56,993 bases of DNA from Treponemataceae bacterium (GCA_051651645.1 JBOFSR010000016.1:1-56993); one strand, 5' to 3'; positions 9,318-35,246 are shown, numbered from the stretch's first letter. Program-made: numbers and translations. Notes: a model not told the origin generated them from the letters alone.

Positions 9318-9321
9318 TTTT

Positions 9322-15028: not shown

Positions 15029-15062
15029 TGTGGCTATAAAATTATAATAATAGGAATATCAC

Positions 15063-17255: not shown

Positions 17256-17262
17256 CGTTCAT

Positions 17263-17291
17263 AGTGAAAAGGATTATTGATCCTTTTCACT
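17263..17291. terminator. Hairpin between convergent genes (12-bp stem), probable bidirectional terminator
   Basis: AGTGAAAAGGAT, loop TATTG, ATCCTTTTCACT. It lies between the trxA stop and the stop of the 17346 gene. There is no U-tract. Confidence 0.4.
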
Positions 17292-17345
17292 GGTGTTGCT
17301 TCAAGTAAAATAATTATAAAAAGTAAGGCAGCTGTCTTAGAATAA

Positions 17346-18425: not shown

Positions 18426-18455
18426 ATTACTCCAGTTTTTATTGCAAGGACTTGT

Positions 18456-19115: not shown

Positions 19116-19259
19116 AAAAATCCATAAAATGATAATTCCTTTTATAATACTCTAGCTTTTTAATAAAATCAAGTAATTACAATCAACGGCTTGTAAATAA
19201 TAAGATATAAGACCTTAAAAACTGCAATCATTGTAATAATCGACACGCTAATCAGGTTG

Positions 19260-20558
19260 CTATATTTTTCGTGCTTCAAAATAAAATCGTTTTTCGCTTG
19301 CTTCACCCATTGAAAAACTTTTACGGGGAAGATTTCCTGTTTGCTCAATTGTCTTGAAAAATGAATTTTTTGTAATATCAGGCAAGAGCATTCCAACCGT
19401 ATTATCTGCCTTAGCGAGTTTAAATACTTCGTTGCTTCCGTGGATGTAGTCAATTTTAGCCGTTTGATTTTTGTTTAAAAACTCATCCAGAAGCGGTTGT
19501 AAAAGGCTTACTAAGAGATTTTCTGTTGTGGTTTGAATAAAAAAATGCTCACTTGTATTATTAGCGGTAAATGAAAGCGAAAATCCATTAAGGTTGGTTG
19601 AAACTTTTTTTTCAAGCTCGGTGGCGGTCATAACTTTTTCAGCTTTACAATTGAGTTTTTCTTCAAAAAAACTGAGCAAATCTTTGGCGTTCACCTTAAA
19701 TAGGGCTCGGTGGATAGGCTCAAAAGTCAGGCCGTCATCAAAAATATTTACAATCTCAATTAAAGCGTACCGTAAAGGACTTTTTTCAATTTGATTTGGG
19801 TTATTTTTTTTGTATTCTTGCCAAATTGTCTTTGCTGTTGCAAGGGAGTGATTGCCATCTCCGACGGCAAATAAAAATGTGTTGCCATCCTCATGGGTGT
19901 TTTGACAATAAAGCGTTTCTAAGTTGGCATGGATGCTCGAATATAAGCTTTCATCAACAAGAAATCCTTTTAAATGCCCAGAATTCTGTAGTAAATCAGT
20001 TTCATATAAAGGAGAGCTTCTGTCAATTTTTTTTGCAATCATTTCTATGAGGATTTTTTTTTCGTCGTTAATCAATAGCATAATATGTGGTAGCTCAAGA
20101 CTTGCACCGTATCTAATTTTTACTCGCGGCGGAATTCGCTCAATGATAGTTGCTTCTGTTGCCCTAATGAGGGCTTTTTTTGAACAATCCCACTCGTAAT
20201 GCTCTAAATCAATTGCCGTAACAAGGCCTCGTCGCATTCTTCCGTATTCTGTGGTTCGCTCTATATAAATCATTCCATTGACAGCTGAAAAATAGTTTGC
20301 GTTACAATACTCAGTCATTTTTGTATGAATGCTTTGAATGCGTTCGTCTTCGTCGTTATTTTCTAAGTACGCCTCAGGATATATCAAGTGCAGGGTTGAG
20401 GGTGCTAAGCCAATTTCTTTTTCAAGGCTCGCCCAGTATTCTTTGTCTTGCGTAAATTGATCACATGCAATAGTCGCCCATTTTTTTTTGTCAAGCTGCG
20501 GTGCTGGAAGTAAAATTTCGCTAATATGCAATCCATATTTTGAAAAATCGTAATTCAT
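19260..20558 (-). CDS. Conserved hypothetical protein, tentatively DUF1015 family
   Basis: 432 aa soluble protein. The GDGNHS block and overall size resemble my recollection of DUF1015 (xDGHHR). This needs an HMM check. Confidence 0.5.
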   Translation of the reverse strand: MNYDFSKYGLHISEILLPAPQLDKKKWATIACDQFTQDKEYWASLEKEIGLAPSTLHLIYPEAYLENNDEDERIQSIHTKMTEYCNANYFSAVNGMIYIERTTEYGRMRRGLVTAIDLEHYEWDCSKKALIRATEATIIERIPPRVKIRYGASLELPHIMLLINDEKKILIEMIAKKIDRSSPLYETDLLQNSGHLKGFLVDESLYSSIHANLETLYCQNTHEDGNTFLFAVGDGNHSLATAKTIWQEYKKNNPNQIEKSPLRYALIEIVNIFDDGLTFEPIHRALFKVNAKDLLSFFEEKLNCKAEKVMTATELEKKVSTNLNGFSLSFTANNTSEHFFIQTTTENLLVSLLQPLLDEFLNKNQTAKIDYIHGSNEVFKLAKADNTVGMLLPDITKNSFFKTIEQTGNLPRKSFSMGEASEKRFYFEARKI

Positions 20559-20617
20559 AAGTCATTCTATCATAAATACCAAAATAAATCTTAAAGGATT
20601 GTATTTTTTTTAGAAAT

Positions 20618-21724
20618 TTAGTGTTTTTGTAAAATGAACAAGTATTCGCGCACGTGAATATTTCTGTTTGTAAGATTTCTGCTCCCTCGAAAGGTATTGT
20701 ATTTTATATCGATTATGGTAAGTTTGCCGTATTTTTTTAGCATGGTGGTCATTTGCTCAAAGCTGATAAAACCCTCTGAATTATACGAAAGAATTAAAAA
20801 CTTGGCATCAAGTGAGCTGACAATGCTTTCTAATGAATTGAGGGCTTTTTGCTTTTTGTTAAAGTTTGAGCGATTCCAGTCTTGTGTAATGCCGCTTACA
20901 TCGCTTATTGCAACGTCAAGCTTGTTTTTCAAAATTAAATTGAGCATAAAATAGTTTGATCCGTAGGGGTGCTGATTGTAAGGCGGGTCTAAGTACGCAA
21001 TATCGATATTTTTGAGTTTGGAGCAAAGAGATTCAGCGTCATCTTCATATATTTCTAACTCGCTTTCAAAATTGCTAAAAACAGGCTCGCTCAAGGTTAC
21101 AGAGCCAACAATGCGAGAGAGGGCATTTTTGGCAGCGCCACCAAAGCAGCCAATCCCCGTATTTTTGTCCTTATAAAATCCCTTAAATACGCCACTTGTG
21201 TTTACGTGGATAGAGGCCTCAGTGATTAGAGGAGCTAAGAAAAATTTGCGTAAGTCGCTTTCTTGGATAATTTCATCTATTAAATGGCGATAGGTATCAA
21301 TTAAAAGGGCATTTTCTCTTGTGTAAAAAACTCGCTCTTTTTTTTTAATGTGATGATCATCTTTTGGAGCATAATGCGTACAAATTATGCCTTCTTTTTT
21401 GTTATCTTTGCAAAGTTGGATAATTTTTTGTCGATATTCGTTGCAAATATCAGCAGGATAGTCTTTTTTATTAATCAAGTAGCAACTATTTATCATTTTT
21501 GAATAATTTTCTAAATCATTTACAATCAGAATCTTGCTATGTTTTTTTAGCATTCGTGCAACAACGCCAGATCCAGAAAACATGTCAGCACAAATAAGAT
21601 TTTTTGCCTGTAACAGCTTTTTAATTCGCTCAACTTCAGGCTCAATTTTTTCTATTAAAAGCCGTTTGTTGCCTAAGTACGTAATGAGCTGCGTTGTATA
21701 AAATTCTTTGTTTTCAGTGATCAT
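20618..21724 (-). CDS. Site-specific DNA N6-adenine methyltransferase (alpha-type motif order, D12/Dam-like class)
   Basis: 368 aa. YLGNKRLL, then the AdoMet motif I DMFSGSG near the N-terminus, and the catalytic motif IV DPPY (AYLDPPYN) in the C-terminal half. Confidence 0.8.
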   Translation of the reverse strand: MITENKEFYTTQLITYLGNKRLLIEKIEPEVERIKKLLQAKNLICADMFSGSGVVARMLKKHSKILIVNDLENYSKMINSCYLINKKDYPADICNEYRQKIIQLCKDNKKEGIICTHYAPKDDHHIKKKERVFYTRENALLIDTYRHLIDEIIQESDLRKFFLAPLITEASIHVNTSGVFKGFYKDKNTGIGCFGGAAKNALSRIVGSVTLSEPVFSNFESELEIYEDDAESLCSKLKNIDIAYLDPPYNQHPYGSNYFMLNLILKNKLDVAISDVSGITQDWNRSNFNKKQKALNSLESIVSSLDAKFLILSYNSEGFISFEQMTTMLKKYGKLTIIDIKYNTFRGSRNLTNRNIHVREYLFILQKH

Positions 21725-21758
21725 ATTTTTAGATTAACATTATAGTTTATTACAAAGA

Positions 21759-21786
21759 ATTATACCAACATAGAATTAAAAATCAA
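21759..21786 (-). promoter_or_regulatory. Putative extended -10 promoter of the methyltransferase gene
   Basis: On the minus strand TTGATT (21786..21781), 16 nt, TGgTATAAT (-10 hexamer at 21764..21759). Confidence 0.45.
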
Positions 21787-21878
21787 GCAAGGCGGTCTTC
21801 GCAGCGGGTTAAAAAGGCTGTAGTCGTGCAGTTTTTTTTTATTTTACAAAGTACAAGACATCTTGGGGGCAATTTTTA

Positions 21879-21907
21879 TTGAATATAAATTTAGAAGGTG
21901 CTATATT
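21879..21907 (+). promoter_or_regulatory. Putative sigma70 promoter of the outer-membrane protein gene
   Basis: TTGAAT (21879..21884), 17 nt, TATATT (21902..21907), about 75 nt upstream of the ATG. Confidence 0.35.
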
Positions 21908-21981
21908 GAGTGCTATTATTTAACTCTTTGCATTATGTTGATTTTTTAACAAGCAAAGATGTATTTCTATTTTAGGAGATT

Positions 21982-23142
21982 ATGATGAAAAAAAAGATTT
22001 TAAGTCTTTTTGTGTTTTCTTTGGTAACTTTAACGGTTTATGCTCAATTACCAGAGGGAGTTAGTGCCGAAAATACCATTGAAGTTGAATTTGGTACCGA
22101 AGCTACAGGTGGAACAAAGTTTCAGCTTTACCATTTGCGTGAACAATTTGATTTATTTTATCATTCGGAAAAAGTTGACTTTGTTGGTCGCATTCGTTTG
22201 CAAATTGCTACCGACTTTGATGATTATTTTGCATTTGGCTCATCGAGCAATGGCAACTGGGATTATCAAGAAGACCTAAAAGCAACAGCCTTGATTCGTC
22301 CCTTTAAGGGCTTGGAGTTTGGCGTTGGAACAGATATTGATTGGGAAGCAGGTGAGCGCTCTATTTGGGATGATGATGACAATCGTTATGCTGTAACGTA
22401 TGGCACCAGAAAATCTGCAGGGCTTTGGGATGCATACCGTGCTGATTTATACGGAAGTAGCGGCTTTGGAACAAGGTTTATTGCAGGCGGATTTTCGCTT
22501 GGAGCAGGTATTCCCTTTCAGTTTGTTGATGATCCATCAGATTTTAAAATGCAAATGGGAACACGTTTTCACTTGCCAGAAATTTTTAGCGTTGGATTTG
22601 CTTGGGTAGGTGATTTTAATGGAGATAGCAATGCAAAAAATCCGTGGAGCCTCTATCTTGGCGGAAGTATTGATTTTTTAAAGATTGTTAAATTTCAAAT
22701 CTTTGCGAACTATGTTCAGTACCGTGGTGCAAATATAAACAGCTTTGCAAAAAGTGAGTTTAACTTAGGTGCTCGTGTAATATTAGCTTTTGGTGTATTT
22801 TCACTTACCCCAGAGTTTGCAATGACCTTTTATGACAAGTATGATGCTCTAAAAGATTCTTTTCGAAATACTTTCTTCATTGCTGTTCCCCTTGATTTCC
22901 AATTTGGAGAAGCCTTTGGACTTGGTGTTACGGTTGCATACGCAACGGGGCATAAAGCAAAAGATGACTTAGATAAGGATGCTTTTGACTCAAAGTTTAC
23001 CGTTGAGCCACGTGTTTCTATTGGTATCAAAGACAGCTCGCTTGAAATTAGCGTTCCCATTGACTTTCAACAACTTCAGTCTCGTGGAGAAAAATTCCAC
23101 ACGGGATTTGCAGGAAAGTTTGCTTGGATAACACGCTTCTAA
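21982..23142 (+). CDS. Putative outer-membrane beta-barrel protein
   Basis: 386 aa with a signal peptide (LVTLTVYAQ), alternating aromatic/Gly-rich strands and a C-terminal ...FAWITRF ending in Phe (beta-signal-like). The second ATG at 21985 has better spacing to AGGAG. Confidence 0.55.
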   Translation: MMKKKILSLFVFSLVTLTVYAQLPEGVSAENTIEVEFGTEATGGTKFQLYHLREQFDLFYHSEKVDFVGRIRLQIATDFDDYFAFGSSSNGNWDYQEDLKATALIRPFKGLEFGVGTDIDWEAGERSIWDDDDNRYAVTYGTRKSAGLWDAYRADLYGSSGFGTRFIAGGFSLGAGIPFQFVDDPSDFKMQMGTRFHLPEIFSVGFAWVGDFNGDSNAKNPWSLYLGGSIDFLKIVKFQIFANYVQYRGANINSFAKSEFNLGARVILAFGVFSLTPEFAMTFYDKYDALKDSFRNTFFIAVPLDFQFGEAFGLGVTVAYATGHKAKDDLDKDAFDSKFTVEPRVSIGIKDSSLEISVPIDFQQLQSRGEKFHTGFAGKFAWITRF

Positions 23143-23152
23143 ATGCCGTATT

Positions 23153-23187
23153 CTACAGAAACAGTTGATTAATCATTGCTTCTGTAG
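23153..23187. terminator. Imperfect hairpin between convergent genes
   Basis: CTACAGAA...TGATT/AATCA...TTCTGTAG. It lies between the OMP stop and the helicase stop. Confidence 0.35.
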
Positions 23188-23224
23188 GATTTGCTGGAGC
23201 GTATTTTACAGAACAAGCCTAAAA

Positions 23225-25318
23225 TCACATAATAAATTTTTGTTTCATTTTTGCAAGGATTTCAAGTGCTTGCTCTGTGTCGAGTGCTTGCTCTGGTTCA
23301 TGATATTCAACAAGGCCTGCAGGAATTTCGTCTAAAAATGGAGAAGGAGCGCATTCAACTACGGATTGCATTTTTTTTCGTTTGCGACACGATGAAATAA
23401 AAAGTTTATCACGGGCTCGAGTAATTGCTACGTAAAAAAGCCGCCGCTCTTCTTCAACATTGCCGTCGCCTTCTTCCATACTTCGTGCGTGCGGAATAAT
23501 TCCCTCTTCGCAACCCACAATAAACACCACAGGAAACTCCAAGCCTTTTGACGCGTGAATTGTCATTAAATTGACCTTGCCTTTTGATCCGTCATCGTCC
23601 ATATCATCACGTGAAAGAAGCGTAATGCGATTAAGATAATCGTACAGCCCTGTTTTCGAGTTGTCGGGATCATTTTCCCATGTTTCCATAGATTGAAGCA
23701 AACTCTCTATGTTCAAAAACTTATATCGAGCAGCCTTCTCGTTCTTTTGGTATTCTGTGATAAGATAATCAGAATAGTTGATTTCATCAATAAGCGTGCG
23801 AACTTTTTTTGCAAGTCCCTTGCCATGCAACATTGCATGACGATGCTTGAGAATAAAGCTGGCAAAGCCCTCAAGCTCAGTTTTCATTTTATCGCTTAGA
23901 ATATCGCTTGCCCGAATGTGCGTAAAGCGTGAAAAATGCTCATCGTCAAGGAGGGGCACGTCCGCATTTTCATCCTCAAAGAGCGAGATGCTTTTATTTT
24001 TGCGACTTGCAAGAAGCGTTGCATTGATGGCAACCCAAAGCGAACAATTATTTTTTGTCGCCACCGCAGAAATATCCTCAAGGGTTTTTCGCCCAATGCC
24101 ACGACGCGGTGTATTGATGATGCGTAGGAGGTTTATGTCGTCATCGTGATTTGCACAAACACGAAGATAACTAATCACATCTTTGATTTCTTTGCGCTGA
24201 AAAAAGCTCGTTCCGCCGCTCATCGTGTAGGGAATGTTATATTCCAAAAAGGATTCTTCGATTGCACGGCTTAAATTATTTGCTCGCAATAAAACGCCGA
24301 AATCATCATAGCGACGATTTTCGCCCATGCGAATGCTCTGAATCATCTCGCACACAAACTCCGCCTCAGCATTTTCATCATCAGGCATATAAATTTCAAT
24401 CGGCTTGCCACTGCCGTTTCCAGACCATAAAGCCTTGTCTTTTCGGTTGGTATTGTTGGAAATGACGCCATTTGCCGCAGCTAAAATTGTTTCCGTCGAG
24501 CGATAATTTTGCTCGAGGCGAATCTCTTTTACATTGGGAAAATCCCTCTCAAACATGCGGATATTTTCGTAATTTGCCCCACGCCATGAATAAATTGACT
24601 GATCATCATCGCCTACAACGCTCACATTTTTGTCGGCAATTAAATGCATAAACTCATATTGCTGCATACTCGTGTCTTGAAACTCATCAACCATGATGTA
24701 TTTATAGCGGGAGCGATATTTTTCTAAAACCTCAGGATGTTCCTTAAAAAGCTTGATGGGCAAGGTGATTAAATCATCAAAATCAACGGCGTTATAGATT
24801 TTTAAGCCTCGTTGATATTCTTCGTACAGCTGACGATACTGATCATTTGAACTTTCCCAGTTCCAGCGACCAATTTTTATGTTTGAAAACAAACTTCCCA
24901 CCGCATACACATCGAGGGCATCGGAGGTAAAGCCCAGCTCCCTTCCCGTTTCTTTTATCAGTTGATTGCGATCGGTTTCATCATAAATACTAAAGTTTTG
25001 CCGCCAACCAAGCTTATCAATGTCGGCTCGAAGAATTTTTACGCCAAAAGCGTGAAAAGTTGAAATCGTAAGATTTTGCAACTTTTTTTGCGTGAGCTCT
25101 TTAATGCGCTCCTCCATTTCTCGGGCAGCTTTGTTCGTAAAGGTGAGCGAGAGAATTTGACTTTGCGGAATGCCTTGCTCGAGCATGTAGGCAATGCGAA
25201 AAGTGATAACGCGCGTCTTGCCACTGCCTGCTCCTGCAATAATAAGAATCGCACCGTCGATAGTGGTCACAACTTCAAGTTGCTTGTCGTTAAGTTCAGC
25301 TTTGTAATTTATATTCAT
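23225..25318 (-). CDS. ATP-dependent DNA helicase, UvrD/PcrA/Rep family
   Basis: 697 aa. Walker A AGAGSGKTRV, motif II VDEFQDTS, and the QNYRS, VGDDDQSIYSWRGA and C-terminal TIHASKGLEFP blocks. Its ATG overlaps the stop of the upstream gene (ATGA). Confidence 0.9.
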   Translation of the reverse strand: MNINYKAELNDKQLEVVTTIDGAILIIAGAGSGKTRVITFRIAYMLEQGIPQSQILSLTFTNKAAREMEERIKELTQKKLQNLTISTFHAFGVKILRADIDKLGWRQNFSIYDETDRNQLIKETGRELGFTSDALDVYAVGSLFSNIKIGRWNWESSNDQYRQLYEEYQRGLKIYNAVDFDDLITLPIKLFKEHPEVLEKYRSRYKYIMVDEFQDTSMQQYEFMHLIADKNVSVVGDDDQSIYSWRGANYENIRMFERDFPNVKEIRLEQNYRSTETILAAANGVISNNTNRKDKALWSGNGSGKPIEIYMPDDENAEAEFVCEMIQSIRMGENRRYDDFGVLLRANNLSRAIEESFLEYNIPYTMSGGTSFFQRKEIKDVISYLRVCANHDDDINLLRIINTPRRGIGRKTLEDISAVATKNNCSLWVAINATLLASRKNKSISLFEDENADVPLLDDEHFSRFTHIRASDILSDKMKTELEGFASFILKHRHAMLHGKGLAKKVRTLIDEINYSDYLITEYQKNEKAARYKFLNIESLLQSMETWENDPDNSKTGLYDYLNRITLLSRDDMDDDGSKGKVNLMTIHASKGLEFPVVFIVGCEEGIIPHARSMEEGDGNVEEERRLFYVAITRARDKLFISSCRKRKKMQSVVECAPSPFLDEIPAGLVEYHEPEQALDTEQALEILAKMKQKFIM

Positions 25319-28179
25319 TTATTTGTTTGCTTCCAGTTTTTTTCATCCCACATATCTCCTTCAACCTCGTATGTTGTGTATAAGTATTTTTTTCGAGGAT
25401 GACGGGGAAAGCTAGCGTGAACAGAAGATAAATGTTGTCGAATATCTTTATTTGGGACATCTTCTTGTTCAAAAATATCTTTTTTTATTAGATAATAAGC
25501 ATCAGCACTTGTCATTGGATCAGTATTTATATCGAATGATTTTATTGAATTAAAATCCTTAAAAAAAAGAATAGAAAAAGGTTTACCTGGTACGTTAAGA
25601 GGAAAATCATACCCTGCTATTTTTTCTGCAATTCCATCATGATCTGAAGCAATTACAATTTTTGTGTTATCATAAATACCATTATTTTTGAGCCAATCAA
25701 TATATTCTGCAAGATATTTCATTATGTGTTCTGCTGTATAAAGTTGAAGCTGCTCTTGGTCTGTAGTAACCAGTTCATTTTCTTTTAGATTCCAAGGAAA
25801 GTGAGAAAGCATACTATAAAAAAATTTAAAAGTCTGTTTTTCTGCATTTATATTTGCAAATTCGGTATTCATTTTTAGCATGGCAAGATCTTTATACGTG
25901 GTATTATTGGTGTTAATACTTTTTGCACTTCCAAGCCACGTTCCATTTTGATAAATATAAGATCGTAAAAAATGTGGTACAATATTGAAAAGAGAGACTG
26001 ATAAAAAAAAGGGATGATATTTGAGTATTTTTGATTGCTCATTACTGGAACTGAAATCCTTGTAAAAAGATGAGAGTTTAGGGTTTAGGTTAAGTAAAAG
26101 CACATTTTTTTTATCTTTGATTTTGCTATAAAAATAGTTGCTACCCATAAAAGCACCTTGATCAGGATAGTTAAGTGCAACTGAAAAACCTTTTTTGGAG
26201 AATAGGTTAGGCAGTTGAGTGAATGCGTTATTTACTTCGGTGCGAAGAGATTTATTTTTTTTATTTATATTTTGTGGTGTATAATCATATCCACCATATA
26301 TTGAAGGTAATGACAGAACAGTGTTTTCTCCAATTGAAGTTGTGTTTTTATACCATGTAAAACCAGTAAATTTTTCTTTAAGTTCTGGATTTCGATCAAA
26401 AACAACAGGAATATCACGGCTATCAAACATATCAAAAATAAAATACACAATATTCTCTTTTGTTGGATGATACGCAAAGAAGTCGTGGATCTTTTTTTCA
26501 TCATTATTAAGTTGCTCTTGAAGAGCTTTGTCTTGATTAGTGATTACTAGTATGTTAAAGAAAGTAAGAAAAGACAGCGATATAAATAAAATTGATAATC
26601 CTGAAAAAACAAACTGAGTTAATCTGAAGTAAAAAATAGTTGTAAAAAAAATGCTTACAGTAAAAAAAATAAAAATATCGTTTATAAAAGCATTTGGCGA
26701 AAAAAAGTAATTTGTATTTGAAAGAAGAGTAAAATCTAAGGTTCCATAATTCCCTTTGAATATGAATAAGCAAGTTAGGAAAAATATTAAGACTGTGAAT
26801 AAAATAAAGGTCGTTATATTACGAATGAAAGTGCTAGAAAGTTGCCATAATAAGCATATGCACGTAAGGCCTATTATTGCAAAGGGGAAAATTTTTGAGC
26901 AAATTGCCAAAATAGATTCATCAAAATATGAAGGATCAGATTTGTATATAGTTACTGTAGTAAAGAAAAAAAATAAAATGGTCAATAATCCTGTGGTAAG
27001 GAAAAAAGTTTGTGTTGATTTGTTTTGAAAAAAAGATTGGAGAAACTTGTTGAGTTGCTGCTTTCGAAAGATAAAAAATACTGTTGAAAACAGGCCAAAA
27101 AAAATATAAATATATAGAAAAAGGTGGGTAGTTGTTAAAAAAAGAATGCTACGCGTTTCAATTAAATGAATATAAATTATTGCTACAGGGATCCATAAAA
27201 AAAGCAAATATCCTATTTGTATGATTGTTTTTGAAATATTTTGGTTGTTTTTTAAAATAAAAATTAATGATGTAATAATGATTGCAAGTATAAGTGCGAT
27301 AAAAATGCTATCTGGCATGACTACCGATGTTGAAGCTTTTCCCCAGTCGGTAAGGGATTGCTTTAGTAAAAAGGCTGACAAAAAAACTGTGTAAAGGCAG
27401 GTTAATCCACCACTAATTAGAATGATTTTAATGATTTTTTCAGCGATTAAAGGCAGTTTAAAAGGCAGATTTAATATCTTCGTAAGATTCTTTTTTCTAT
27501 CGATGGATTTAATTTCTTTTTCACCTAATTTTACTCTAACAATTAAATTCTGTACAAAAAAGATGAGATTATTTGTTGTCCAAAAGAAGAGTAAGGCACT
27601 GGGGGCGGAATACAAAAGCCATAAAAATCCACCTGCGATGATAAAGGCTTGAGTGCGGTCTTTTATGCTTAGCTTTGGGATGATGAGCGTGGTACAAATA
27701 TTTATTGCCGTCATTAAAAAGGGCAAAAAGTTTACTCCCCCGAGCAAACCATCAGGCTTGCTTAAATCGCTGGTAAATAGAAAGCTTTGTCCTTTAAGGG
27801 CTGTGAAGTTGCTAATCATATAGTAGGCACCGAGCAAGAAGGGGAGTTGCAAAATCACGCCAAAGGCACTGCGAATAGCTAAAAATGGATGGTATCGATA
27901 TTTTTTATACAGATTACTCGTTCGTAGTTGTCGTTTTGAGCCGTCGGTTTCTTCGGCTTTGATTTTGTCAAGCTTTGGTTTGATCAGGGCAGAGAGTTGT
28001 TTTTCTTTATGCTGAGCTTTTACGGCAAGTCGTCCAAGTGGAAGATAGCCAATCGCTGCAAGGCACGAAAGTACAATCAGACCAACGCCGTAATTGCCTG
28101 TAATTGTGTAGCATAGGCTGTAAACAAAATGATATATCAATTCCAACGGATAAATAAACATTGCGTATAACGGATTCAT
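25315..28179 (-). CDS. Fusion protein, copy C: YidC/Oxa1-like 5-TM core + polytopic region + LtaS/EptA-like alkaline-phosphatase-superfamily ectodomain
   Basis: 954 aa. Residues 1-215 align by eye to the YidC core (GNYG...YLPL, QLPFLLGAYYMI, DLSKPD, PSALLFFWTTNNLIFFVQN). Residues ~235-545 contain about 9 hydrophobic segments. The C-terminal domain carries IFDMFDS, the T620 motif NTVLSLPSIYGGY and ASDHDG (25633..25650). Confidence 0.8.
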   Translation of the reverse strand: MNPLYAMFIYPLELIYHFVYSLCYTITGNYGVGLIVLSCLAAIGYLPLGRLAVKAQHKEKQLSALIKPKLDKIKAEETDGSKRQLRTSNLYKKYRYHPFLAIRSAFGVILQLPFLLGAYYMISNFTALKGQSFLFTSDLSKPDGLLGGVNFLPFLMTAINICTTLIIPKLSIKDRTQAFIIAGGFLWLLYSAPSALLFFWTTNNLIFFVQNLIVRVKLGEKEIKSIDRKKNLTKILNLPFKLPLIAEKIIKIILISGGLTCLYTVFLSAFLLKQSLTDWGKASTSVVMPDSIFIALILAIIITSLIFILKNNQNISKTIIQIGYLLFLWIPVAIIYIHLIETRSILFLTTTHLFLYIYIFFGLFSTVFFIFRKQQLNKFLQSFFQNKSTQTFFLTTGLLTILFFFFTTVTIYKSDPSYFDESILAICSKIFPFAIIGLTCICLLWQLSSTFIRNITTFILFTVLIFFLTCLFIFKGNYGTLDFTLLSNTNYFFSPNAFINDIFIFFTVSIFFTTIFYFRLTQFVFSGLSILFISLSFLTFFNILVITNQDKALQEQLNNDEKKIHDFFAYHPTKENIVYFIFDMFDSRDIPVVFDRNPELKEKFTGFTWYKNTTSIGENTVLSLPSIYGGYDYTPQNINKKNKSLRTEVNNAFTQLPNLFSKKGFSVALNYPDQGAFMGSNYFYSKIKDKKNVLLLNLNPKLSSFYKDFSSSNEQSKILKYHPFFLSVSLFNIVPHFLRSYIYQNGTWLGSAKSINTNNTTYKDLAMLKMNTEFANINAEKQTFKFFYSMLSHFPWNLKENELVTTDQEQLQLYTAEHIMKYLAEYIDWLKNNGIYDNTKIVIASDHDGIAEKIAGYDFPLNVPGKPFSILFFKDFNSIKSFDINTDPMTSADAYYLIKKDIFEQEDVPNKDIRQHLSSVHASFPRHPRKKYLYTTYEVEGDMWDEKNWKQTNK

Positions 28180-28220
28180 AACCTAAGACTACCAGCATTA
28201 CTAAAAAAAATCAATGAGTT
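27516..28220 (-). repeat. Conserved head repeat, copy C (promoter + first ~220 codons)
   Basis: About 0.7 kb, nearly identical at nucleotide level to 30456..31161 and 33411..34096. Confidence 0.85.
28186..28214 (-). promoter_or_regulatory. Putative promoter of copy C with leaderless geometry
   Basis: On the minus strand TTGATT, 17 nt (starting with a T-run), TAGTCT, 6 nt, ATG. The same geometry is present in all three copies. Confidence 0.35.
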
Positions 28221-28234
28221 GTCATAAAGCGAAA

Positions 28235-31120
28235 TCACTTCACTTCTTCAACTAATTTCCAATTTTCTTTGGTGAACATGGTGCCTTCAACCTCATATGA
28301 TTTACAATAAGTATTTCCTTGCGTGTGATTTTTGAAATTCCAATCACATAAAAAATGTTGTCGTTTTTCTTTTGAGTTATTGTTGTCCGAAAAAAAATCT
28401 TTTCGTGCCAAGTAATAGGTATCAGCATTTGTCATTAATTCTTGAGAAATTTTTAATTTTCCCAGTTCCTTAAAATCTTTTACCAGAAGTAGAGCATGTG
28501 GCCTTCCTTGAATAGGGCTTTGACTAAAGGTTGTTAATTCTTGGGGGATTTCGTTCCAAAATGTTTTTAATAGCATTTGACTGTCAAAGGAACAATGATC
28601 AGAGGCAATTATTATTCGAGTATTGTCATAAATATTTAAATTTTTTAAGTCTTCAATATAATTAATCATCATATGTAAAATATGCTCTTCGGTAAATAAG
28701 TGTTCAGGGACAATTCCGTTAATCCGCACTTCTTGTCCTTTTGTTTGAGGATAAGGATCTTTGACAATTTTTAAATTATTTTCTTCTAAATGCCAGCTGA
28801 TGTGAGAAAGTTCATTATAGTGAATTTTTAGAGTTGGTGTTTTTGCTGAATCAATTAATTTTTCTTGAAATAGTTTAAATTTTGCAATATTGACAGCTGT
28901 AGTAACGTTTGATACAGCTGATTTAACTAAATCAAGCCAATTTCCATTGTCATATATAAAATAGCGTATTATATGTGGTGTAATGTTGAATAATGAAAGA
29001 ATAAGAAAATATGATTCAAGCTTTTGGGAAAAACTTGTTGATTGAATATAATCTTGGTAAAATGATGAATAAATGGGATTAACTTCTGCTAATAAGATAT
29101 TTTCTTTGTTTTTTATATTTTTATAAAAAAATTCTACCCCCATAAAGTCAGAGGGATTATTTAGTGATACAAAAAAACCTTTTTCTGCAAAGCTTTCGGG
29201 CAATTTTGTATAAGACTGATTTGCTTCCTCAAAAATATTGCCTCGCTCAAGCATTTTGTTATGCGTGTAGTCATACCCAGCGTACATAGAGGGTGCACTT
29301 GATAGAGTTGCTTGACTGGCGGCAAGGGTATCAGGATACCACGTAAAACCATCTAAGCCATCCCAAAAGTTTGGGTTTCTCTCCAATAACTGCTCCATGT
29401 GTCCGCCAGTAAACATATCAAAAATAAAAATGAGAATATTGGGTTCTGTTTTGCTTAATCCGTAATATTGATCAAAGTTGATATCGTTACTCGACGTAAA
29501 ATTTTGGCTTATATTATCTTTTTTTATACCCTTTATTATAGAGTATGTAGTCATGAAGCTTATAGAGACAAAAAAGAATATGAAAACTAAAATTATCTTA
29601 TCAATAATTTTATGGAAAAGCGAATAAATGACTATAATCCATGCAATGGAAAAACAGAGCACATCAAATAAAATATTTTTTGGAATATAAAACTTAGGGT
29701 TTGACAAAAGTATTAAATCCAATGCCCCATAGTTCCCTTTAAAAACAAAGAAATATAATAAGGACGTTGTTGTTACAAAAAAGAATATTGTTAAAAAACA
29801 GTATTTTGCAAGCGGCGGTAAAATAACATATAAGCCGATTAAAAAAAACAAAAAACATACCAAAAAAGGAAGGATTTTTGCAAGAGCAGAAAAAATGCTG
29901 TAGGAAAAATAGCTTGAATCTGACTCGTATAATAACGCAATGTTATAAACAAAAAAAATTGTGATAAAAACAAGCAGGCATGAAATGAATAATTGGTGAG
30001 ATGTTTTTTTGAAAATATCTGTTAATTTGATTTTTAGTTTTTCTAAATCTTGTGTTAATAAAAAAATTAAAGCATTAGTGATAAAAAGTATTGAATAAAA
30101 AAGAAAATTCCAACGACGAAATATAAAAAGACGATTTGTTTTGATAATAAAAATACATAAAAATAAGGCTGGAAGTAATATTAAAAATATTTTAAGTGAC
30201 TTGTGTAGTTGAAGCTTTAAACTTGGATTATTTTTTCGTATTTTTGAAATAGCGTAAGTTATAATCCATACAGAAAATAATAAAATAATAAAATCAGGAA
30301 TAAGAGGGAGGTATCCAAAATCGAAATTATCGCGTTGAAAATAGAAAAAACTTTTTAGTGTTAAAACAAGTATATATATAGAATAAAAAAGAATTCCAAT
30401 TAAAATAGTTTTAATCCCTTGTGTTTGGACAAGCTTAAATTGATAAAAAGAAGACTCTTTTTCACCTAATTTTATTCTAGTAATCAAATTCTGTACCAAA
30501 AAGATGAGATTGTTTGTTGTCCAAAAGAATAGTAAAGCACTGGGGGCAGAATATAAAAGCCATAAAAATCCGCCTGCAATGATAAAGGCTTGGGTGCGGT
30601 CTTTTATGCTTAGTTTTGGGGTGATGAGCGTCGTGCAAATATTTATTGCCGTCATCAAAAAGGGCAAAAAGTTTACGCCCCCTAATAATCCATCAGGCTT
30701 GCTTAAATCGCTGATGAATAGAAAATTTTGTCCCTCAAGGGCTGTAAAGTTGCTAATCATATAGTAGGCTCCGAGCAAGAAGGGGAGCTGCAAAATCACA
30801 CCAAAGGCACTGCGGATAGCTAAAAATGGATGATAGCGATATTTTTTATATAGATTGCTCGTTCGTAATTGTCGCTTTGAGCCGTCGGTTTCTTCGGTTT
30901 TGATTTTGTCAAGCTTTGGTTTGAGTAAGGCGGAGAGTTGTTTTTCTTTGTGTTGAGCTTTTACGGCAAGCCGGCCAAGAGGAAGATAGCCAATCGCTGC
31001 AAGGCAAGAAAGGACAATCAGCCCAACGCCGTAATTGCCTGTAATTGTGTAGCATAGGCTGTAAATAAAATGGTATATCAATTCCAACGGATAAATAAAC
31101 ATTGCGTATAACGGATTCAT
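28235..31120 (-). CDS. Fusion protein, copy B: YidC/Oxa1-like core + polytopic region + LtaS/EptA-like ectodomain
   Basis: 961 aa with the same architecture. The ectodomain motifs are IFDMFTGGH, ATLSSAPSMYAGY and ASDHCS. Confidence 0.8.
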   Translation of the reverse strand: MNPLYAMFIYPLELIYHFIYSLCYTITGNYGVGLIVLSCLAAIGYLPLGRLAVKAQHKEKQLSALLKPKLDKIKTEETDGSKRQLRTSNLYKKYRYHPFLAIRSAFGVILQLPFLLGAYYMISNFTALEGQNFLFISDLSKPDGLLGGVNFLPFLMTAINICTTLITPKLSIKDRTQAFIIAGGFLWLLYSAPSALLFFWTTNNLIFLVQNLITRIKLGEKESSFYQFKLVQTQGIKTILIGILFYSIYILVLTLKSFFYFQRDNFDFGYLPLIPDFIILLFSVWIITYAISKIRKNNPSLKLQLHKSLKIFLILLPALFLCIFIIKTNRLFIFRRWNFLFYSILFITNALIFLLTQDLEKLKIKLTDIFKKTSHQLFISCLLVFITIFFVYNIALLYESDSSYFSYSIFSALAKILPFLVCFLFFLIGLYVILPPLAKYCFLTIFFFVTTTSLLYFFVFKGNYGALDLILLSNPKFYIPKNILFDVLCFSIAWIIVIYSLFHKIIDKIILVFIFFFVSISFMTTYSIIKGIKKDNISQNFTSSNDINFDQYYGLSKTEPNILIFIFDMFTGGHMEQLLERNPNFWDGLDGFTWYPDTLAASQATLSSAPSMYAGYDYTHNKMLERGNIFEEANQSYTKLPESFAEKGFFVSLNNPSDFMGVEFFYKNIKNKENILLAEVNPIYSSFYQDYIQSTSFSQKLESYFLILSLFNITPHIIRYFIYDNGNWLDLVKSAVSNVTTAVNIAKFKLFQEKLIDSAKTPTLKIHYNELSHISWHLEENNLKIVKDPYPQTKGQEVRINGIVPEHLFTEEHILHMMINYIEDLKNLNIYDNTRIIIASDHCSFDSQMLLKTFWNEIPQELTTFSQSPIQGRPHALLLVKDFKELGKLKISQELMTNADTYYLARKDFFSDNNNSKEKRQHFLCDWNFKNHTQGNTYCKSYEVEGTMFTKENWKLVEEVK

Positions 31121-31161
31121 AACGTAAGACTACCAGTATTGCTAAAAAAAATCAATGAGTT
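30456..31161 (-). repeat. Conserved head repeat, copy B
   Basis: Nearly identical to the copy C and copy A heads. Its upstream end overlaps the last codons of copy A. Confidence 0.85.
31127..31155 (-). promoter_or_regulatory. Putative promoter of copy B (leaderless geometry), overlapping the 3' end of copy A
   Basis: TTGATT (31155..31150), 17 nt, TAGTCT (31132..31127), TACGTT, ATG. No AGG or GGAG lies upstream of the ATG. Confidence 0.35.
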
Positions 31162-34061
31162 TTCTTTTTGATACCCTCACTTAAATCCCAGTTTTTTAAA
31201 TTAAACATTGAGCCTTTTACTGCAAACTTTTGATATGAAAATTTTTTTTCATTCCTGCTTGGGGCAATGGTATCTGCGACATAGTGATAGCGGATAGAAT
31301 TATCTTGTTTCTGTTCGGGAAAAATATCTTTTTGAGCCAAGTAATATGTATCTGCTGTTGTCATTAGGTCAGTAGAAATTTCTAATTTACCTTGCGTATT
31401 AAAATCCTTAAATAGTAGAAGCCCATGTGGACGGCCAGGATATACTTGCTCCGTATACAGCTCAGCTACAGGGCTTATATTTCCGCCAAGTTTTTTTTGT
31501 AACATTACACTATCTGCCCAGCAGTGGTCAGAAGTAATAATGATCTTTGTATTATTATAAACGCCAAGCTGTTTTAGTTTTTCAATATATTCTACTGCAA
31601 AGTTTATTATATGCTCTTCTGTATAAAGATGTGATGGCACAATACCATTTATGGTTGTCCAGTCACTCGTTTTTGTAGGATTTTGTACAATTTTTAACTC
31701 TTTTTCTTTCAAATAGAAAGGAACATGGGATAATTCATTATAATGAATTTTTAGAGTTGGCTTTTGTCTTGTTGTGTTAGCTTGCTCTGCAAACATTTTT
31801 ATGGAAGATATTTTTTGTAGTGTTTGAGTGATTGTATTTACATCTTTTGTGATACCAAGCCATTTTCCTTGATTGTATAAATAATGCTTCATTGTATGTG
31901 GTATTATGCTGAATGCTGAGGTCGTTAAAAACAAAGCCGTTGAATTATTACTAATAGTTTCCATAAACAGATATTCTTTGTAAAACTGAGATAAAGATAT
32001 ATCAGGATCTAGCAGCAAAACATTATCTGGTTTAGCAATTTTTTTGTAGAAAAAAGCATCGTCTAAAAAATATGCAGGCGTGTTGAGAGTAACTTCAAAA
32101 TCTATGTCGCTAAATTGATTAGGGAGCTCTGTATATGCGGCATTGATTTCCTTTATGAGAAAATTTTTTCGGCTGTTTATAGCTTCTGGAGTATAATTAT
32201 ATCCACCATAGATAGATGGAAGACTTGTTGCTGTATATTGACTCAGTGCAACGGTATCAGGATACCACGTAAAACCATCTAAGTCATTCCAAAAGTTTGA
32301 GTTTCTCTCTAGCAGTTCTTCCATGTGTCCGCCAGTAAACATGTCAAAAATAAAAATGATTACATTTGGTTCTGTTTTACTAAGTCCATAATACTGTTCG
32401 AGCAATTTCTCTGTTTGTTCATCTGTGACGACTTCTGTTGTTGGAGTGGTTTTCTTTTTTTGCGGTATGCTTACAAACGTCGTTATGACAATCGTTGCTA
32501 CAAGAAATAAAAGAGCTGCATTGTTATATTTTTCTATCATCTTATATTTGTAAAGCAGTACAAGAGTAGTACTTGCTATAAAAAAAGCAATCATATCCAT
32601 TGCAAACTGATTAAGTGTAAAAAATACAGGATTTGATAAGAGGTTTAAATCTAATGCACCATAATTTCCCTTAAAAATAAAGAGATTAAGTAAGCTCAAA
32701 AAAAGGCTAAAAATAACCACGCTAGTTGTAATATATTTCCAGTACTGATTAAGAAAATAATAAATTAAAGTGATGCATCCAAAACACACGAGTGCTAGGG
32801 GGAATATTTTACTGTATGCGGTAAAAAGACTATCGGTAAAGTAGCTTGCATCAGATTTATAAAACATCGCAACATGATAAAAAAAGAATAGAATAAAAAG
32901 TATTGCAAGGCTCGTAAAAAAAGGTTTATGTGTTTTTTTGTGAAAAATAGTATTAAAAAAGGCTGTTATTTTTTTTGTATCAATTGAAATAAGAATGAGA
33001 AAAAAATTTGTCAAAAAAATAAGTGTATAAAGCCCATAGTTTATTGCACCCATGAGTAACAATTTATCATTTTTTACAAGGTGTCTAAAAAAGTAGAAGC
33101 TTGGAGTCCACAGCATCAAGACGGATATAATTTTAACGCTTGCAAAAAAAATCTTATTATGTGATTTTGTTTGTATAATAATTTTCCAAACTGCCCAAAA
33201 GGTTATGCAAATAGATATATAAGCTAAGGCGATTTCGATAGATAGGTTAAGTATAAAAGGCTTTAATACGATTTCTTTGAGCTCCATGTATTTTTTTATA
33301 TAAATAAATGTTGTATACAATCCGTAAATAGACGTAGTCGCTAAAATTGCTTGATTCCATCGTGAGAGTGTTAATTTAACTGGGGGCGTTGTAGGCTCGT
33401 TGTTTTTAGTTTTTATTCTAGCAATTAAATTTTGTACTAAAAAGATGAGATTATTTGTTGTCCAAAAAAATAGTAAGGCACTGGGGGCGGAATACAAAAG
33501 CCACAAAAATCCTCCTGCGATGATAAAGGCTTGTGTGCGGTCTTTTATGCTTAGTTTTGGGGTGGTGAGCGTGGTACAAATATTTATTGCCGTCATTAAA
33601 AACGGTAAAAAGTTTACGCCTCCTAATAATCCATCAGGCTTGTTTAAATCGCTGATGAACAGAAAGCTTTGTCCCTCAAGGGCAGTAAAGTTGCTAATCA
33701 TATAGTAGGCACCGAGTAAGAAGGGGAGTTGTAAAATCACGCCAAAGGCACTACGGATAGCTAAAAATGGATGATAACGATATTTTTTGTATAGATTGCT
33801 CGTTCGTAATTGCCGTTTTGAGCCGTCGGTTTCTTCGGCTTTGATTTTGTCAAGCTTTGGTTTGAGTAAGGCCGAGAGTTGTTTTTCTTTGTGCTGAGCT
33901 TTTAAGGCAAGTCGTCCTAGCGGAAGATAGCCAATTGCGGCAAGGCACGAAAGTACAATCAGACCAACGCCGTAATTGCCTGTAATTGTGTAGCATAGGC
34001 TGTAAACAAAATGATAAACCAATTCCAACGGATAAATAAACATTGCGTATAACGGATTCAT
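31152..34061 (-). CDS. Fusion protein, copy A: YidC/Oxa1-like core + polytopic region + LtaS/EptA-like ectodomain
   Basis: 969 aa with the same architecture. The ectodomain motifs are IFDMFTGGH, YTATSLPSIYGGY and TSDHCW. Confidence 0.8.
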   Translation of the reverse strand: MNPLYAMFIYPLELVYHFVYSLCYTITGNYGVGLIVLSCLAAIGYLPLGRLALKAQHKEKQLSALLKPKLDKIKAEETDGSKRQLRTSNLYKKYRYHPFLAIRSAFGVILQLPFLLGAYYMISNFTALEGQSFLFISDLNKPDGLLGGVNFLPFLMTAINICTTLTTPKLSIKDRTQAFIIAGGFLWLLYSAPSALLFFWTTNNLIFLVQNLIARIKTKNNEPTTPPVKLTLSRWNQAILATTSIYGLYTTFIYIKKYMELKEIVLKPFILNLSIEIALAYISICITFWAVWKIIIQTKSHNKIFFASVKIISVLMLWTPSFYFFRHLVKNDKLLLMGAINYGLYTLIFLTNFFLILISIDTKKITAFFNTIFHKKTHKPFFTSLAILFILFFFYHVAMFYKSDASYFTDSLFTAYSKIFPLALVCFGCITLIYYFLNQYWKYITTSVVIFSLFLSLLNLFIFKGNYGALDLNLLSNPVFFTLNQFAMDMIAFFIASTTLVLLYKYKMIEKYNNAALLFLVATIVITTFVSIPQKKKTTPTTEVVTDEQTEKLLEQYYGLSKTEPNVIIFIFDMFTGGHMEELLERNSNFWNDLDGFTWYPDTVALSQYTATSLPSIYGGYNYTPEAINSRKNFLIKEINAAYTELPNQFSDIDFEVTLNTPAYFLDDAFFYKKIAKPDNVLLLDPDISLSQFYKEYLFMETISNNSTALFLTTSAFSIIPHTMKHYLYNQGKWLGITKDVNTITQTLQKISSIKMFAEQANTTRQKPTLKIHYNELSHVPFYLKEKELKIVQNPTKTSDWTTINGIVPSHLYTEEHIINFAVEYIEKLKQLGVYNNTKIIITSDHCWADSVMLQKKLGGNISPVAELYTEQVYPGRPHGLLLFKDFNTQGKLEISTDLMTTADTYYLAQKDIFPEQKQDNSIRYHYVADTIAPSRNEKKFSYQKFAVKGSMFNLKNWDLSEGIKKKTH

Positions 34062-34096
34062 AGCCTAATACTACCAGCATTATTAAAAAAAATCAA
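33411..34096 (-). repeat. Conserved head repeat, copy A
   Basis: Nearly identical to the heads of copies B and C, up to and including the TTGATT -35 element. Confidence 0.85.
34068..34096 (-). promoter_or_regulatory. Putative promoter of copy A (leaderless geometry)
   Basis: TTGATT (34096..34091), 17 nt, TAGTAT (34073..34068), TAGGCT, ATG. This is the best -10 of the three copies. Confidence 0.4.
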
Positions 34097-34139
34097 CTCA
34101 CGTGGTTTTAGAATAACCTATTTCACTGCTTTTTATAAA

Positions 34140-35246
34140 TCATATAGGATGTGATCCGTAATCGCCACGCTGGCCTGTTAATTCATAGCCGATTGATGAT
34201 ATGTTTTTTTTCTGGAGAGCTACTCCTTCAGCGGACTCGGTTCCTGTAGCAATTTTGTCATTGTAGAGCAGGTATTTTTTGCGGACGCTCAGAGGTGAAA
34301 GATTGGGCATTACAACATTCGCTCCTGCAAGTATTCCTAGTAGCTGTCCCCCTGGGATCAAGGTTCCTAATGCGGTTGTTGCTGGTAGCGGTGATTTTGG
34401 AAAAAGTAATCGGGTTATGCTGAGCATAATCAAGGTGAGCTCCAATGATCCATTTTTTTTATTGGCGAATGGCGTATCCTCATGCGTTAAAAATGGTCCC
34501 ATTCCAATCATTTCAGGCTGAATTTCTTGCATGAACATCAAATCTTCTACGATTGTATCAAGCGTTTGGTGCGGGCTGCCAATCATAATGCCAATTCCCG
34601 TCTGGAAATGTAGCTGCTTAAGTGTGCGAATGCAACGTTTTCGATTTTCTAAGTTCATACTCGACGGATGCAGTTTTGCATAATGCTCATCATTTGCCGT
34701 TTCATGACGGAGTAAAAATCTATCAACTCCAGCTTTTTTAATCGCTTGGTAAAAGGAATCAGACTTCTCTCCAATTGAAAGAGTTAATGCACAGTCAGGA
34801 TATTTTTGCTTTATGGCGGCAATGATTTCAGTCATTTTTTCAGCGGTGTAATAATCCTCCTCGCCACCTTGCATTACAAAACTTCGAAAACCGAGTGTAT
34901 AGCCTTGCTCATAGCAGGAAAGAATTTGTTCAAGTGAGAGGCGGTAGCGCTGTGCCTTTGAATTGGTTGCTCGAAGTCCGCAGTAATAGCAATCATTTTT
35001 GCAATAACTGCTAAACTCAATTAGCCCGCGCATATAAACCTTGTTGCCAAAGATGCTTTGCGAAACTTTTTGAGCAGTGCTGCGTAAATATTCTTTTAAT
35101 TCAGCAATCTTAGCTTGTTCGGTCTGTGTTAAAACTTTTTGATCCAGCGAGTTTTCAAACTCAAACGAAGAAAGCAGGATTTTTGCATCCTGTTTTGAAA
35201 GCATTTGAGTTTTTTTTATGGTGTCAATAATTTGTTTCGCTTGCAT
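34140..35246 (-). CDS. hydE: [FeFe]-hydrogenase H-cluster radical SAM maturase HydE
   Basis: 368 aa. The CKNDCYYCGLR radical-SAM cluster, LLRHETAN, GPFLTHEDTPFA and LPATTALGTLIPGG blocks match my recollection of Thermotoga HydE closely. GGAGAG RBS. Confidence 0.8.
   Translation of the reverse strand: MQAKQIIDTIKKTQMLSKQDAKILLSSFEFENSLDQKVLTQTEQAKIAELKEYLRSTAQKVSQSIFGNKVYMRGLIEFSSYCKNDCYYCGLRATNSKAQRYRLSLEQILSCYEQGYTLGFRSFVMQGGEEDYYTAEKMTEIIAAIKQKYPDCALTLSIGEKSDSFYQAIKKAGVDRFLLRHETANDEHYAKLHPSSMNLENRKRCIRTLKQLHFQTGIGIMIGSPHQTLDTIVEDLMFMQEIQPEMIGMGPFLTHEDTPFANKKNGSLELTLIMLSITRLLFPKSPLPATTALGTLIPGGQLLGILAGANVVMPNLSPLSVRKKYLLYNDKIATGTESAEGVALQKKNISSIGYELTGQRGDYGSHPI

Follow-up and report, generated by a model that had tools for sequence, protein, structure and literature searches.

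In the gtrA-gtrB-gtrC modules for O-antigen glucosylation of Shigella and Salmonella phages, conserved and interchangeable flippase and charging genes (gtrA and gtrB) are combined with a divergent, type-specific gene for a polytopic transferase (gtrC). The tpr genes of Treponema pallidum encode outer-membrane proteins built of conserved and variable blocks, for whose conflicting block genealogies gene conversion is the accepted cause, and tprK is served by donor cassettes. The vlp and vsp lipoprotein genes of Mycoplasma stand in tandem, with a promoter and a signal peptide as their highly conserved part, in the 5' non-coding region and at the N-terminus, and a homopolymer drives their phase variation. 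Among the membrane-anchored enzymes of the alkaline-phosphatase superfamily, with which the GacH-type glycerol-phosphate transferases are counted, those of the LtaS type usually occur as several paralogues per genome that differ in role (e.g., LtaP and LtaS in Listeria, and four in B. subtilis). Here we describe three tandem genes (A, B, and C) in 56,993 nucleotides (nt) of DNA from a Treponemataceae bacterium (GCA_051651645.1, JBOFSR010000016.1:1-56993; hereafter the window), each of which encodes a nearly constant N-terminal head followed by a strongly divergent tail.

Our favored reading, to which we give a probability of about 0.7, is that these genes encode two-module inner-membrane enzymes whose mosaic structure arose by past recombination together with selection, and not by programmed switching. 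The genes are full-length tandem open reading frames (ORFs) on the minus strand (25315-34061), and their parts are as follows.

25315-28179, minus strand: gene A, ORF of 954 amino acids (aa); predicted YidC-fold head, about nine transmembrane (TM) helices, and an alkaline-phosphatase-superfamily ectodomain
28235-31120, minus strand: gene B, ORF of 2886 nt and 961 aa; architecture as in gene A
31152-34061, minus strand: gene C, ORF of 2910 nt and 969 aa; architecture as in gene A
27529-28226, minus strand: constant module of A; leader 28180-28226 (47 nt) plus codons 1-217
30470-31167, minus strand: constant module of B; leader 31121-31167, overlapping the end of gene C, plus codons 1-217
33411-34108, minus strand: constant module of C; leader 34062-34108 plus codons 1-217
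26455-27528, minus strand: linker and TM part of A (aa 218-575); basic cytoplasmic linker and about nine TM helices, as predicted by AlphaFold2 (AF2) and the positive-inside pattern
25315-26454, minus strand: ectodomain of A (aa 576-954), with D583, T620, H793, D846, and H847; an alpha/beta domain in the AF2 model
29265-29473, minus strand: second shared block, B copy; start of the ectodomain, from beta-1 with the metal-binding Asp through GFTWYPDT
32191-32399, minus strand: second shared block, C copy; 79% nt identity with the B copy

Shared head and divergent tails

Repeat finding recovered three direct repeats (27529-27828, 30470-30769, and 33411-33710; 90-92% identical), in agreement with an initial annotation that had described a constant head and a variable tail in three paralogues. 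The shared 5' module measures about 0.70 kb and consists of the 47-nt leader plus codons 1-217, over which a protein-guided codon alignment gave nt identities of 91.6% (A-B), 92.2% (A-C), and 92.0% (B-C), whereas the tails of A, B, and C are only 45-59% identical. The segments had been called near-identical, which is right in that they are shared but slightly generous, as 102 of 651 head sites vary among four copies (A, B, C, and A2, the last from a related genome), 79 of these 102 at third codon positions. No other head or tail fragment was found in the window or in L001, the locus that carries A2 (repeat finding; tblastn, E <= 1). Of the segments first given, the third had been placed 14 nt out of register (33411, not 33397). 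At the protein level, the heads are 95-96% identical with 8-11 aa differences per pair, and the 8 counted between B and C are close to the ten or so estimated by eye.

Both edges of the module are sharp. Upstream of each ATG, identity persists for about 37-47 nt (some 40 bp had been estimated) and then stops abruptly, and this 5' edge keeps its position of about -47 whether the module follows HydE, araA, or either of two paralogue tails (four contexts). The boundary in gene C is the same as that in A2. At the 3' edge, divergence begins at codon 217-222, right after NNLIF(F/L)VQNLI.R(V/I)K as had been noticed, and identity collapses within five codons. Beyond this point, the TM parts of the paralogues are 26-28% identical as proteins and their ectodomains 39-47%, so that the linker and TM part (aa 218-575 of A) is the most variable portion. 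The heads are indeed more GC-rich than the tails, with a GC content of 0.40 versus 0.25-0.33 and a third-position GC content (GC3) of 0.40-0.44 versus 0.20-0.28. The GC3 contrast is also present in single-copy relatives, being equal or larger in two of them (L008 and L010), which rules out GC-biased gene conversion as the source of the high head GC3.

Conservation around the start exceeds that in the remainder of the head. All four copies agree throughout the first 42 nt of the coding sequence and over most of the 47-nt leader (28138-28226, 31079-31167, and 34020-34108; L001 9099-9187), and the fully identical stretch runs from -40 to +42 (82 nt). This invariance could reflect a translation-initiation constraint or a younger conversion tract. 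The leader contains a T8 run of the same length in all four copies. Folding of the leader plus the first 60 nt is less stable than that of shuffled sequences, and Rfam gave no match in the leader or 5' end; together these results argue against an RNA element there, and we read the region as an open site of translation initiation. The promoter that had been assigned to the module was not recovered, as a sigma-70-like promoter scan gave no match in the leader, with a number of sites equal to the shuffled expectation.

Genealogies of head and tails

The head and its 47-nt leader have a genealogy that is different from, and much younger than, that of the tails. Synonymous divergence (dS, Nei-Gojobori) is 0.33-0.39 among the heads but 1.6-4.3, and thus saturated, among the tails, which means that head conservation is not at the protein level only. 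As had been proposed, the head is under very strong purifying selection, with a ratio of nonsynonymous divergence (dN) to dS of 0.04-0.07 versus 0.19-0.35 in the tails. Codons differ at 18-21% of identical amino acids in the head and at 42-55% in the tails, a comparison in which alignment error is removed as a cause by its limitation to identical amino acids; four-fold sites differ at 21-28% and 51-67%, respectively. A lower dS in the shared segment together with sharp boundaries (-47 and codon 217-222) is the pattern of segmental concerted evolution. In a control pair of tandem homologues from another organism (L007), the head is more conserved as protein only, and about half of its identical-residue codons differ, as in the tail; this saturation of head synonymous sites argues for a family without intrinsic synonymous constraint.

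A scan of genome contigs found only one related locus, and a scan of metagenome contigs found none. The one locus, L001, belongs to Treponemataceae WFFMC_MAG_639 and has flanking DNA 94.6-96% identical to the window (flank dS 0.21, dN 0.015); it carries one copy, A2, single and next to araA. The tail of A2 is of the A type (55% and 72% aa identity to A in the TM part and ectodomain, respectively) and, with a dS of about 1.1, forms the closest tail pair. The heads of A and A2 are, in contrast, the most distant pair (71 differences, dS 0.57), compared with 55 differences (dS 0.37) for A-B and 51 (dS 0.33) for A-C, and a bootstrap value of 98% places the A head nearer to B and C than to A2. The A2 and B heads differ at 55 sites, as many as A and B, and A2 is the only outside DNA sequence. 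This reversal of the head and tail distance orders cannot be produced by uniform (including synonymous) constraint, but can be by recombination; the comparison of orthologous loci yielded a single copy with conflicting head and tail genealogies. Between A and A2, the interior is far more diverged than the flanks, and the last 30 codons are back to 91% identity. Such a pattern resembles the exchange of alleles between conserved flanks that surface-polysaccharide genes usually show.

A further relative, P0002, is known as protein only, and the head DNA comparison comprises the four sequences A, B, C, and A2. P0002 is 92-95% identical to C across the head, the TM part, and the first ectodomain block, but only about 50% identical from residue 600; its head end is A-like (F208, V214, and V216) and its C-terminus B-like. 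P0002 is a mosaic of head, TM part, and ectodomain with a sharp breakpoint at about aa 600, and the P0002/C breakpoint falls at the 3' edge of the second shared block. In that block, B and C show synonymous differences at 16/50 versus 62/136 in the rest of the ectodomain, and a 15-codon core is 93% identical. Breakpoints thus lie at the domain linker and just past the first conserved ectodomain block, and the hypervariability of the tails is seen among paralogues as well as on comparison of closely related genomes.

Domains of the encoded proteins

The heads match PF02096 (60KD_IMP) over profile positions 1-162 of 163 (72.4, 75.3, and 72.2 bits for A, B, and C; cut-off 35) and score 68.3-70.7 bits with TIGR03592 (NCBIfam yidC_oxa1_cterm), below its trusted cut-off of 84.3. 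An AF2 model of the gene A protein, built on 97 homologues, has a mean predicted local distance difference test score (pLDDT) of 85 and a predicted template modeling score of 0.70. Its head (pLDDT about 85-96) is predicted to form five helices with a basic cytoplasmic hairpin, and Foldseek aligns it with B. halodurans YidC (3wo7_A) at a TM-score of 0.68 and a root-mean-square deviation (rmsd) of 3.4 A over 218 columns, and with 6al2_B at an rmsd of 4.2 A. At the position of the conserved arginine in the hydrophilic groove (R72 in B. halodurans YidC2, R366 in E. coli YidC), A, B, and C have Ala42, and the commonest residues in this column among 97 family members are N, F, S, A, Y, and G (85/97), with Arg not among these six. 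The head (aa 1-217) is accordingly modeled as a YidC/Oxa1-fold five-helix domain that lacks the canonical groove arginine. A predicted linker (aa 217-243) that is basic and of low AF2 confidence follows.

For the tail, the model of A predicts a basic cytoplasmic linker, about nine TM helices, and an alpha/beta ectodomain from aa 576, in a topology that obeys the positive-inside rule with the ectodomain outside; the five-helix N-terminal anchor typical of the LtaS/EptA type is replaced by these helices plus the five-helix head. The gene A protein matches PF00884 (33.9 bits; cut-off 25), and those of B and C fall below this cut-off on their own and align with A throughout. Foldseek matched the A ectodomain with a probability of 1.00 to LtaS (2w5r), LtaP (4uop), EptA (5fgn), and MCR-1 (9nww), and also to PbgA and sulfatases; profile searches of the PDB agree, the LtaS match having an E value of 5e-6. 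The catalytic set (metal-binding Asp, Thr nucleophile, His, and an Asp-His pair) is invariant among A, B, and C, with D568, T605, H773, D841, and H842 of B and D573, T610, H779, D845, and H846 of C aligned with the residues of A, which are conserved in the 97 family members as follows.

D583 (A numbering): D in 95
T620 (A numbering): T in 83, S in 14
H793 (A numbering): H in 84
D846 (A numbering): D in 97
H847 (A numbering): H in 96

The nucleophile region, NT(V/L)xS(L/A)PS, holds a Thr and no Arg. A formylglycine sulfatase is ruled out by this Thr nucleophile and the absence of the C/S-x-P-x-R motif, the Pfam name "Sulfatase" not being literal, and the tails are therefore putative LtaS/EptA-like phosphotransferases, as judged from sequence and model.

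Fusion family and genomic context

A search with B returned about 100 clusters of 750-1240-aa proteins with the same head and tail layout, from Treponemataceae, Selenomonadaceae, Clostridiales, Butyrivibrio, Cloacimonadota, and a Vibrio; where named, they are called "YidC/Oxa1 family membrane protein insertase". When the tail alone was searched against 1.84 billion representatives, 2673 clusters resulted (169 at E <= 1e-30), including head-less homologues of about 700-770 aa that contain the sulfatase-type domain only, and the head is hence an addition to an enzyme that is autonomous. Across the fusion family, 34 of the 51 positions conserved at >=85% lie in the head, and mean column conservation is 0.54 in the head, 0.40 in the ectodomain, and 0.31 in the TM part.

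A gene for a TagF-like Glyphos_transf protein (PF04464) directly adjoins the fusion gene in 6/7 loci outside this lineage, which suggests that the fusion family modifies a surface glycopolymer. Those loci also contain cytidylyl or nucleotidyl transferases, and two of them (Butyrivibrio and Selenomonadaceae) contain phosphoenolpyruvate (PEP) mutase and phosphonopyruvate decarboxylase, a neighborhood suggestive of teichoic-acid-like or phosphonate decoration of surface glycans. The tandem pair of L007 (5130-10577; Logan SRR17023465), of 900 and 898 aa, lies beside Glyphos_transf, aminotransferase, CTP-transferase, and UbiA genes; tandem duplication hence recurs in the family, there without homogenization of the heads at the DNA level. 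A common five-gene cassette (PPDK_N/PEP-utilizers enzyme, GATase, NTP_transferase, Glyphos_transf, and the YidC fusion) was found in L008 (5472-13249, a metagenome contig) and L009 (4280-12385, the chromosome of Vibrio sp. HN007). The sharing of this cassette suggests a mobile pathway for an unusual activated substituent.

Locus layout and neighboring genes

The spacers between genes are short (A-B 55 nt, B-C 31 nt), with neither a sigma-70-like promoter nor a terminator prominent in them, and this tight spacing suggests that A, B, and C are probably co-transcribed as a single operon. Their neighbors are as follows.

34140-35246, minus strand: upstream neighbor, HydE radical-SAM maturase (TIGR03956, 502 bits), 78 nt from gene C
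23225-25318, minus strand: downstream neighbor, ORF of a UvrD/PcrA-type helicase (PF00580 and PF13361)

The stop of gene A overlaps the helicase start by 4 nt (ATGA, 25315-25318), which suggests that translation of the helicase is coupled to that of an envelope enzyme gene. Gene C has no stop at the position equivalent to that of B, and its 3' end (KKKTH*, 31152-31167) runs into the conserved leader of gene B because a 12-nt deletion relative to the B 3' end took out the ancestral stop. The ATG-to-ATG distance is 2941 nt twice (28179, 31120, and 34061) despite unequal genes (2886 and 2910 nt), unequal spacers (55 and 31 nt), and tail indels. This equality is probably due to chance, as P0002 and C likewise reach equal length via compensating indels, and we set it aside as a mark of either constraint or artefact. 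Antisense ORFs on the plus strand occur in the heads of B (30504-30764, 86 aa) and C (33400-33705, 101 aa), with none of >=80 aa in that of A, and are most likely a by-product of head conservation.

L001 lacks the helicase gene, of which only the last ~50 nt are kept at 96% identity (L001 12060-13825 versus window 23153-25318), and a 532-aa membrane ORF with a weak PMT_2 (GT-C glycosyltransferase) match is inserted there at a point that matches ~23215 of the window. Between the 3' end of a P-type ATPase gene and the helicase remnant, 19.4 kb of the window (3771-23153) have no counterpart in L001; the genes of this stretch include those for an ECF-type sigma factor, a Mur ligase, an M24 peptidase, a Na+/H+ antiporter, PGM/PMM, a Bac_transf sugar transferase, DUF1015, and a D12 adenine methyltransferase. 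The difference is either a rearrangement or a contig chimera in the metagenome-assembled genome. Two BioY-family genes (440-1012 and 49572-50156) lie 49 kb apart in the window.

Origin of the mosaic

We propose that past homologous recombination made the mosaic, through conversion between copies, tail replacement at domain boundaries, or both, and that the diverged tails would restrict the length of conversion tracts. Several observations weigh against this proposal or narrow it. The head tree is star-like and rests on four DNA sequences, and its 20 informative sites split 4/7/9, interleaved, over the three topologies, a conflict of which parallel third-position changes (homoplasy) could explain part. 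A GENECONV-like run test found no significant tract in any of the six pairs (permutation p 0.07-1.0), a PHI-like test on the heads gave p 0.53, and the GC3 contrast, being shared by single-copy relatives, is no evidence for conversion. Gene conversion among the copies is not separable here from tail replacement by foreign alleles, some synonymous constraint on the head may also be at work (the first 42 nt are invariant), and the sequence comes from a metagenome-type assembly. On the functional side, no TagF-like or nucleotidyl-transferase gene is present in the 57-kb window or beside A2, neither a cytidylyltransferase nor a PEP mutase was found when partner genes were sought in the window, and literature searches on YidC-sulfatase/LtaS fusions returned no paper on this family. 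Finally, the heads of this genome differ more in dS (0.33-0.39) than the flanks of the two genomes do (0.21), and homogenization is therefore old. The initial proposal of ongoing conversion or concerted evolution thus stands for recombination, on account of the conflicting trees and the P0002 mosaic, but not for its being ongoing.

Could the same pattern have arisen with no recombination at all? Old duplicates with a single genealogy, in which both the head protein and its synonymous sites are selected (for messenger RNA features or codon choice), would explain why the head is the most conserved part across the family and has so low a dN/dS, why the first 42 nt and the leader are invariant in an unusually unstructured region, and why significant conversion tracts were not detected. 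We nevertheless consider such constraint on its own unlikely, since A and A2 form the nearest pair by tail but the most remote by head (bootstrap 98%), P0002 changes partner at a sharp breakpoint, the L007 heads have saturated synonymous sites, and the identity spans a 47-nt non-coding leader before ending abruptly. Still harder to credit, and the least probable account considered here, is a recent triplication followed by very fast adaptive divergence of the tails: the star-like head tree with its nearly equal distances and the equal length of the tandem units agree with it, but tail synonymous sites are saturated even at unchanged residues (four-fold differences of 51-67% versus 21-28% in the head), so that protein selection cannot be the cause of the divergence, and tail dN/dS is 0.19-0.35, not above 1.

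An active constant/variable cassette system, a resemblance raised in the initial annotation, would make the head an expression or recombination site and would vary the cell surface by switching tails through programmed conversion or site-specific recombination. Direct repeats of 0.7 kb do flank each tail, copy number and context vary among relatives (A2 is single, beside araA), tails differ between relatives (TM part 55% and ectodomain 72% aa identity) far beyond the flank dN of 0.015, and every leader has a T8 run. However, each copy is full-length with its own start and leader and an unbroken catalytic set, the window and L001 contain no silent or truncated cassettes, no recombinase or invertase was found among the window ORFs, and inverted repeats in the window are only AT-rich chance matches with no shufflon. 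The heads, moreover, are 8% different without identical tracts, and the T8 run has equal length in all four copies, all of which makes such a system very improbable. The odds are similarly poor that assembly or binning joined strain alleles or genes of other loci in tandem via the shared head, even though the source is apparently a metagenome assembly, relatives have single copies in other contexts, the 82-nt identical stretch (-40 to +42) could confuse a short-k assembler on gene order, the exactly equal 2941-nt spacing is odd, and no sequencing run was found to contain the region. The copies differ by 8% in the head and ~50% in the tails, too much for a collapsed or duplicated repeat, and the tail-to-leader junctions are unique sequence (the C stop in the B leader and the 55-nt B-A spacer) that no assembler would make. 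A mis-join at the 82-nt stretch would alter gene order only and not head-tail pairing, and independent assemblies (L001 and P0002) have the same head on related tails.

Proposed function

In our favored reading of recombined two-module enzymes, the tail would be the specificity module, moving a phospho-alcohol or phosphonate group onto a surface glycolipid or glycan, and the three paralogues may act on three acceptors or steps, by analogy with the LtaS-type paralogues of Firmicutes. Treponemes have a lipooligosaccharide free of lipid A (PMC3285142). The head would provide a service common to all copies, for which our preferred guess is membrane thinning and the scrambling or flipping of a lipid-linked donor; alternatively, it may help the large tail to insert or fold. 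Scrambling of phospholipids has been shown for purified E. coli YidC and for other Oxa1-family insertases (PMC11047089), and we favor donor-lipid delivery over an insertase role because of this activity and the loss of the groove arginine, which serves protein substrates. More specifically, though here we are speculating and rather doubt the full version, the head might act, not as an insertase of proteins, but as the dedicated scramblase or flippase of a lipid-linked donor (phospho-alcohol or phosphonate) that the TagF-like partner makes on the cytoplasmic face, fused to a type-specific extracytoplasmic transferase, i.e., a GtrA/B/C-like system in one polypeptide with one delivery module for three acceptors.

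The mosaic marks a clean functional boundary within a protein family that is unstudied, is represented by hundreds of clusters in anaerobes of several phyla, and is labeled "YidC insertase". Its members are more likely surface-glycopolymer phosphotransferases with a recruited YidC fold than insertases. A head that moves lipid-linked substrates would be the first Oxa1-fold domain in nature to be dedicated to translocating lipid and not protein, and the recently shown scramblase activity of insertases would then gain a physiological pathway. In addition, the hypervariability of the tails, while housekeeping genes differ by ~5%, points to a strain-typing surface determinant in treponemes, with relevance to phage and host recognition.

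Comparison with known systems

The evolutionary pattern itself is ordinary, as segmental recombination combined with purifying selection is of a known kind. The tpr genes, from the same bacterial family, share with this locus the alternation of conserved and variable blocks and the block-wise conflict of genealogies; here, however, the constant block is a whole folded enzyme domain, and there are neither donor cassettes (window and L001) nor recent tracts. Like the vlp and vsp genes, A, B, and C are in tandem, with a conserved leader and N-terminus, divergent bodies, and a homopolymer in the leader, but they differ in having no detectable promoter, an invariant T8 run, and a conserved part that is a 217-aa domain.

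Among enzymes, the LtaS, LtaP, EptA (MCR-1), and PbgA group resembles the tails in an extracytoplasmic alpha/beta domain matched by both sequence and fold, in the metal-binding Asp, Thr nucleophile, and Asp-His pair, and in a polytopic N-terminal membrane anchor. The proteins of A, B, and C depart from this group in having about nine TM helices instead of five and a YidC-fold domain in front; similarity is low (E values of 1e-5 to 1e-9) and no nearer to LtaS than to sulfatases, and the TagF-like genomic partner of the fusion suggests a nucleotide-activated donor pathway rather than plain phosphatidylglycerol. With YidC/Oxa1 proteins (B. halodurans YidC2 and E. coli YidC), the heads share an above-threshold PF02096 match, the five-helix core, the basic cytoplasmic hairpin, and common motifs (QxP in TM2, the DL..PD loop, and N in TM5). 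They are, on the other hand, only 19-30% identical to canonical YidC, stay below the TIGR03592 cut-off, have Ala in place of the groove arginine, and are fused to a 730-aa enzyme. The gtr modules differ from the present genes in several respects, as the modules are fused in one polypeptide here, the predicted reaction is phosphotransfer and not glycosyl transfer, there is no phage context, and a flippase role of the head is inferred. In their logic, they nonetheless correspond: both combine a constant service module with a variable specificity module, and the fusion loci pair a cytoplasmic loader with a periplasmic transferase.

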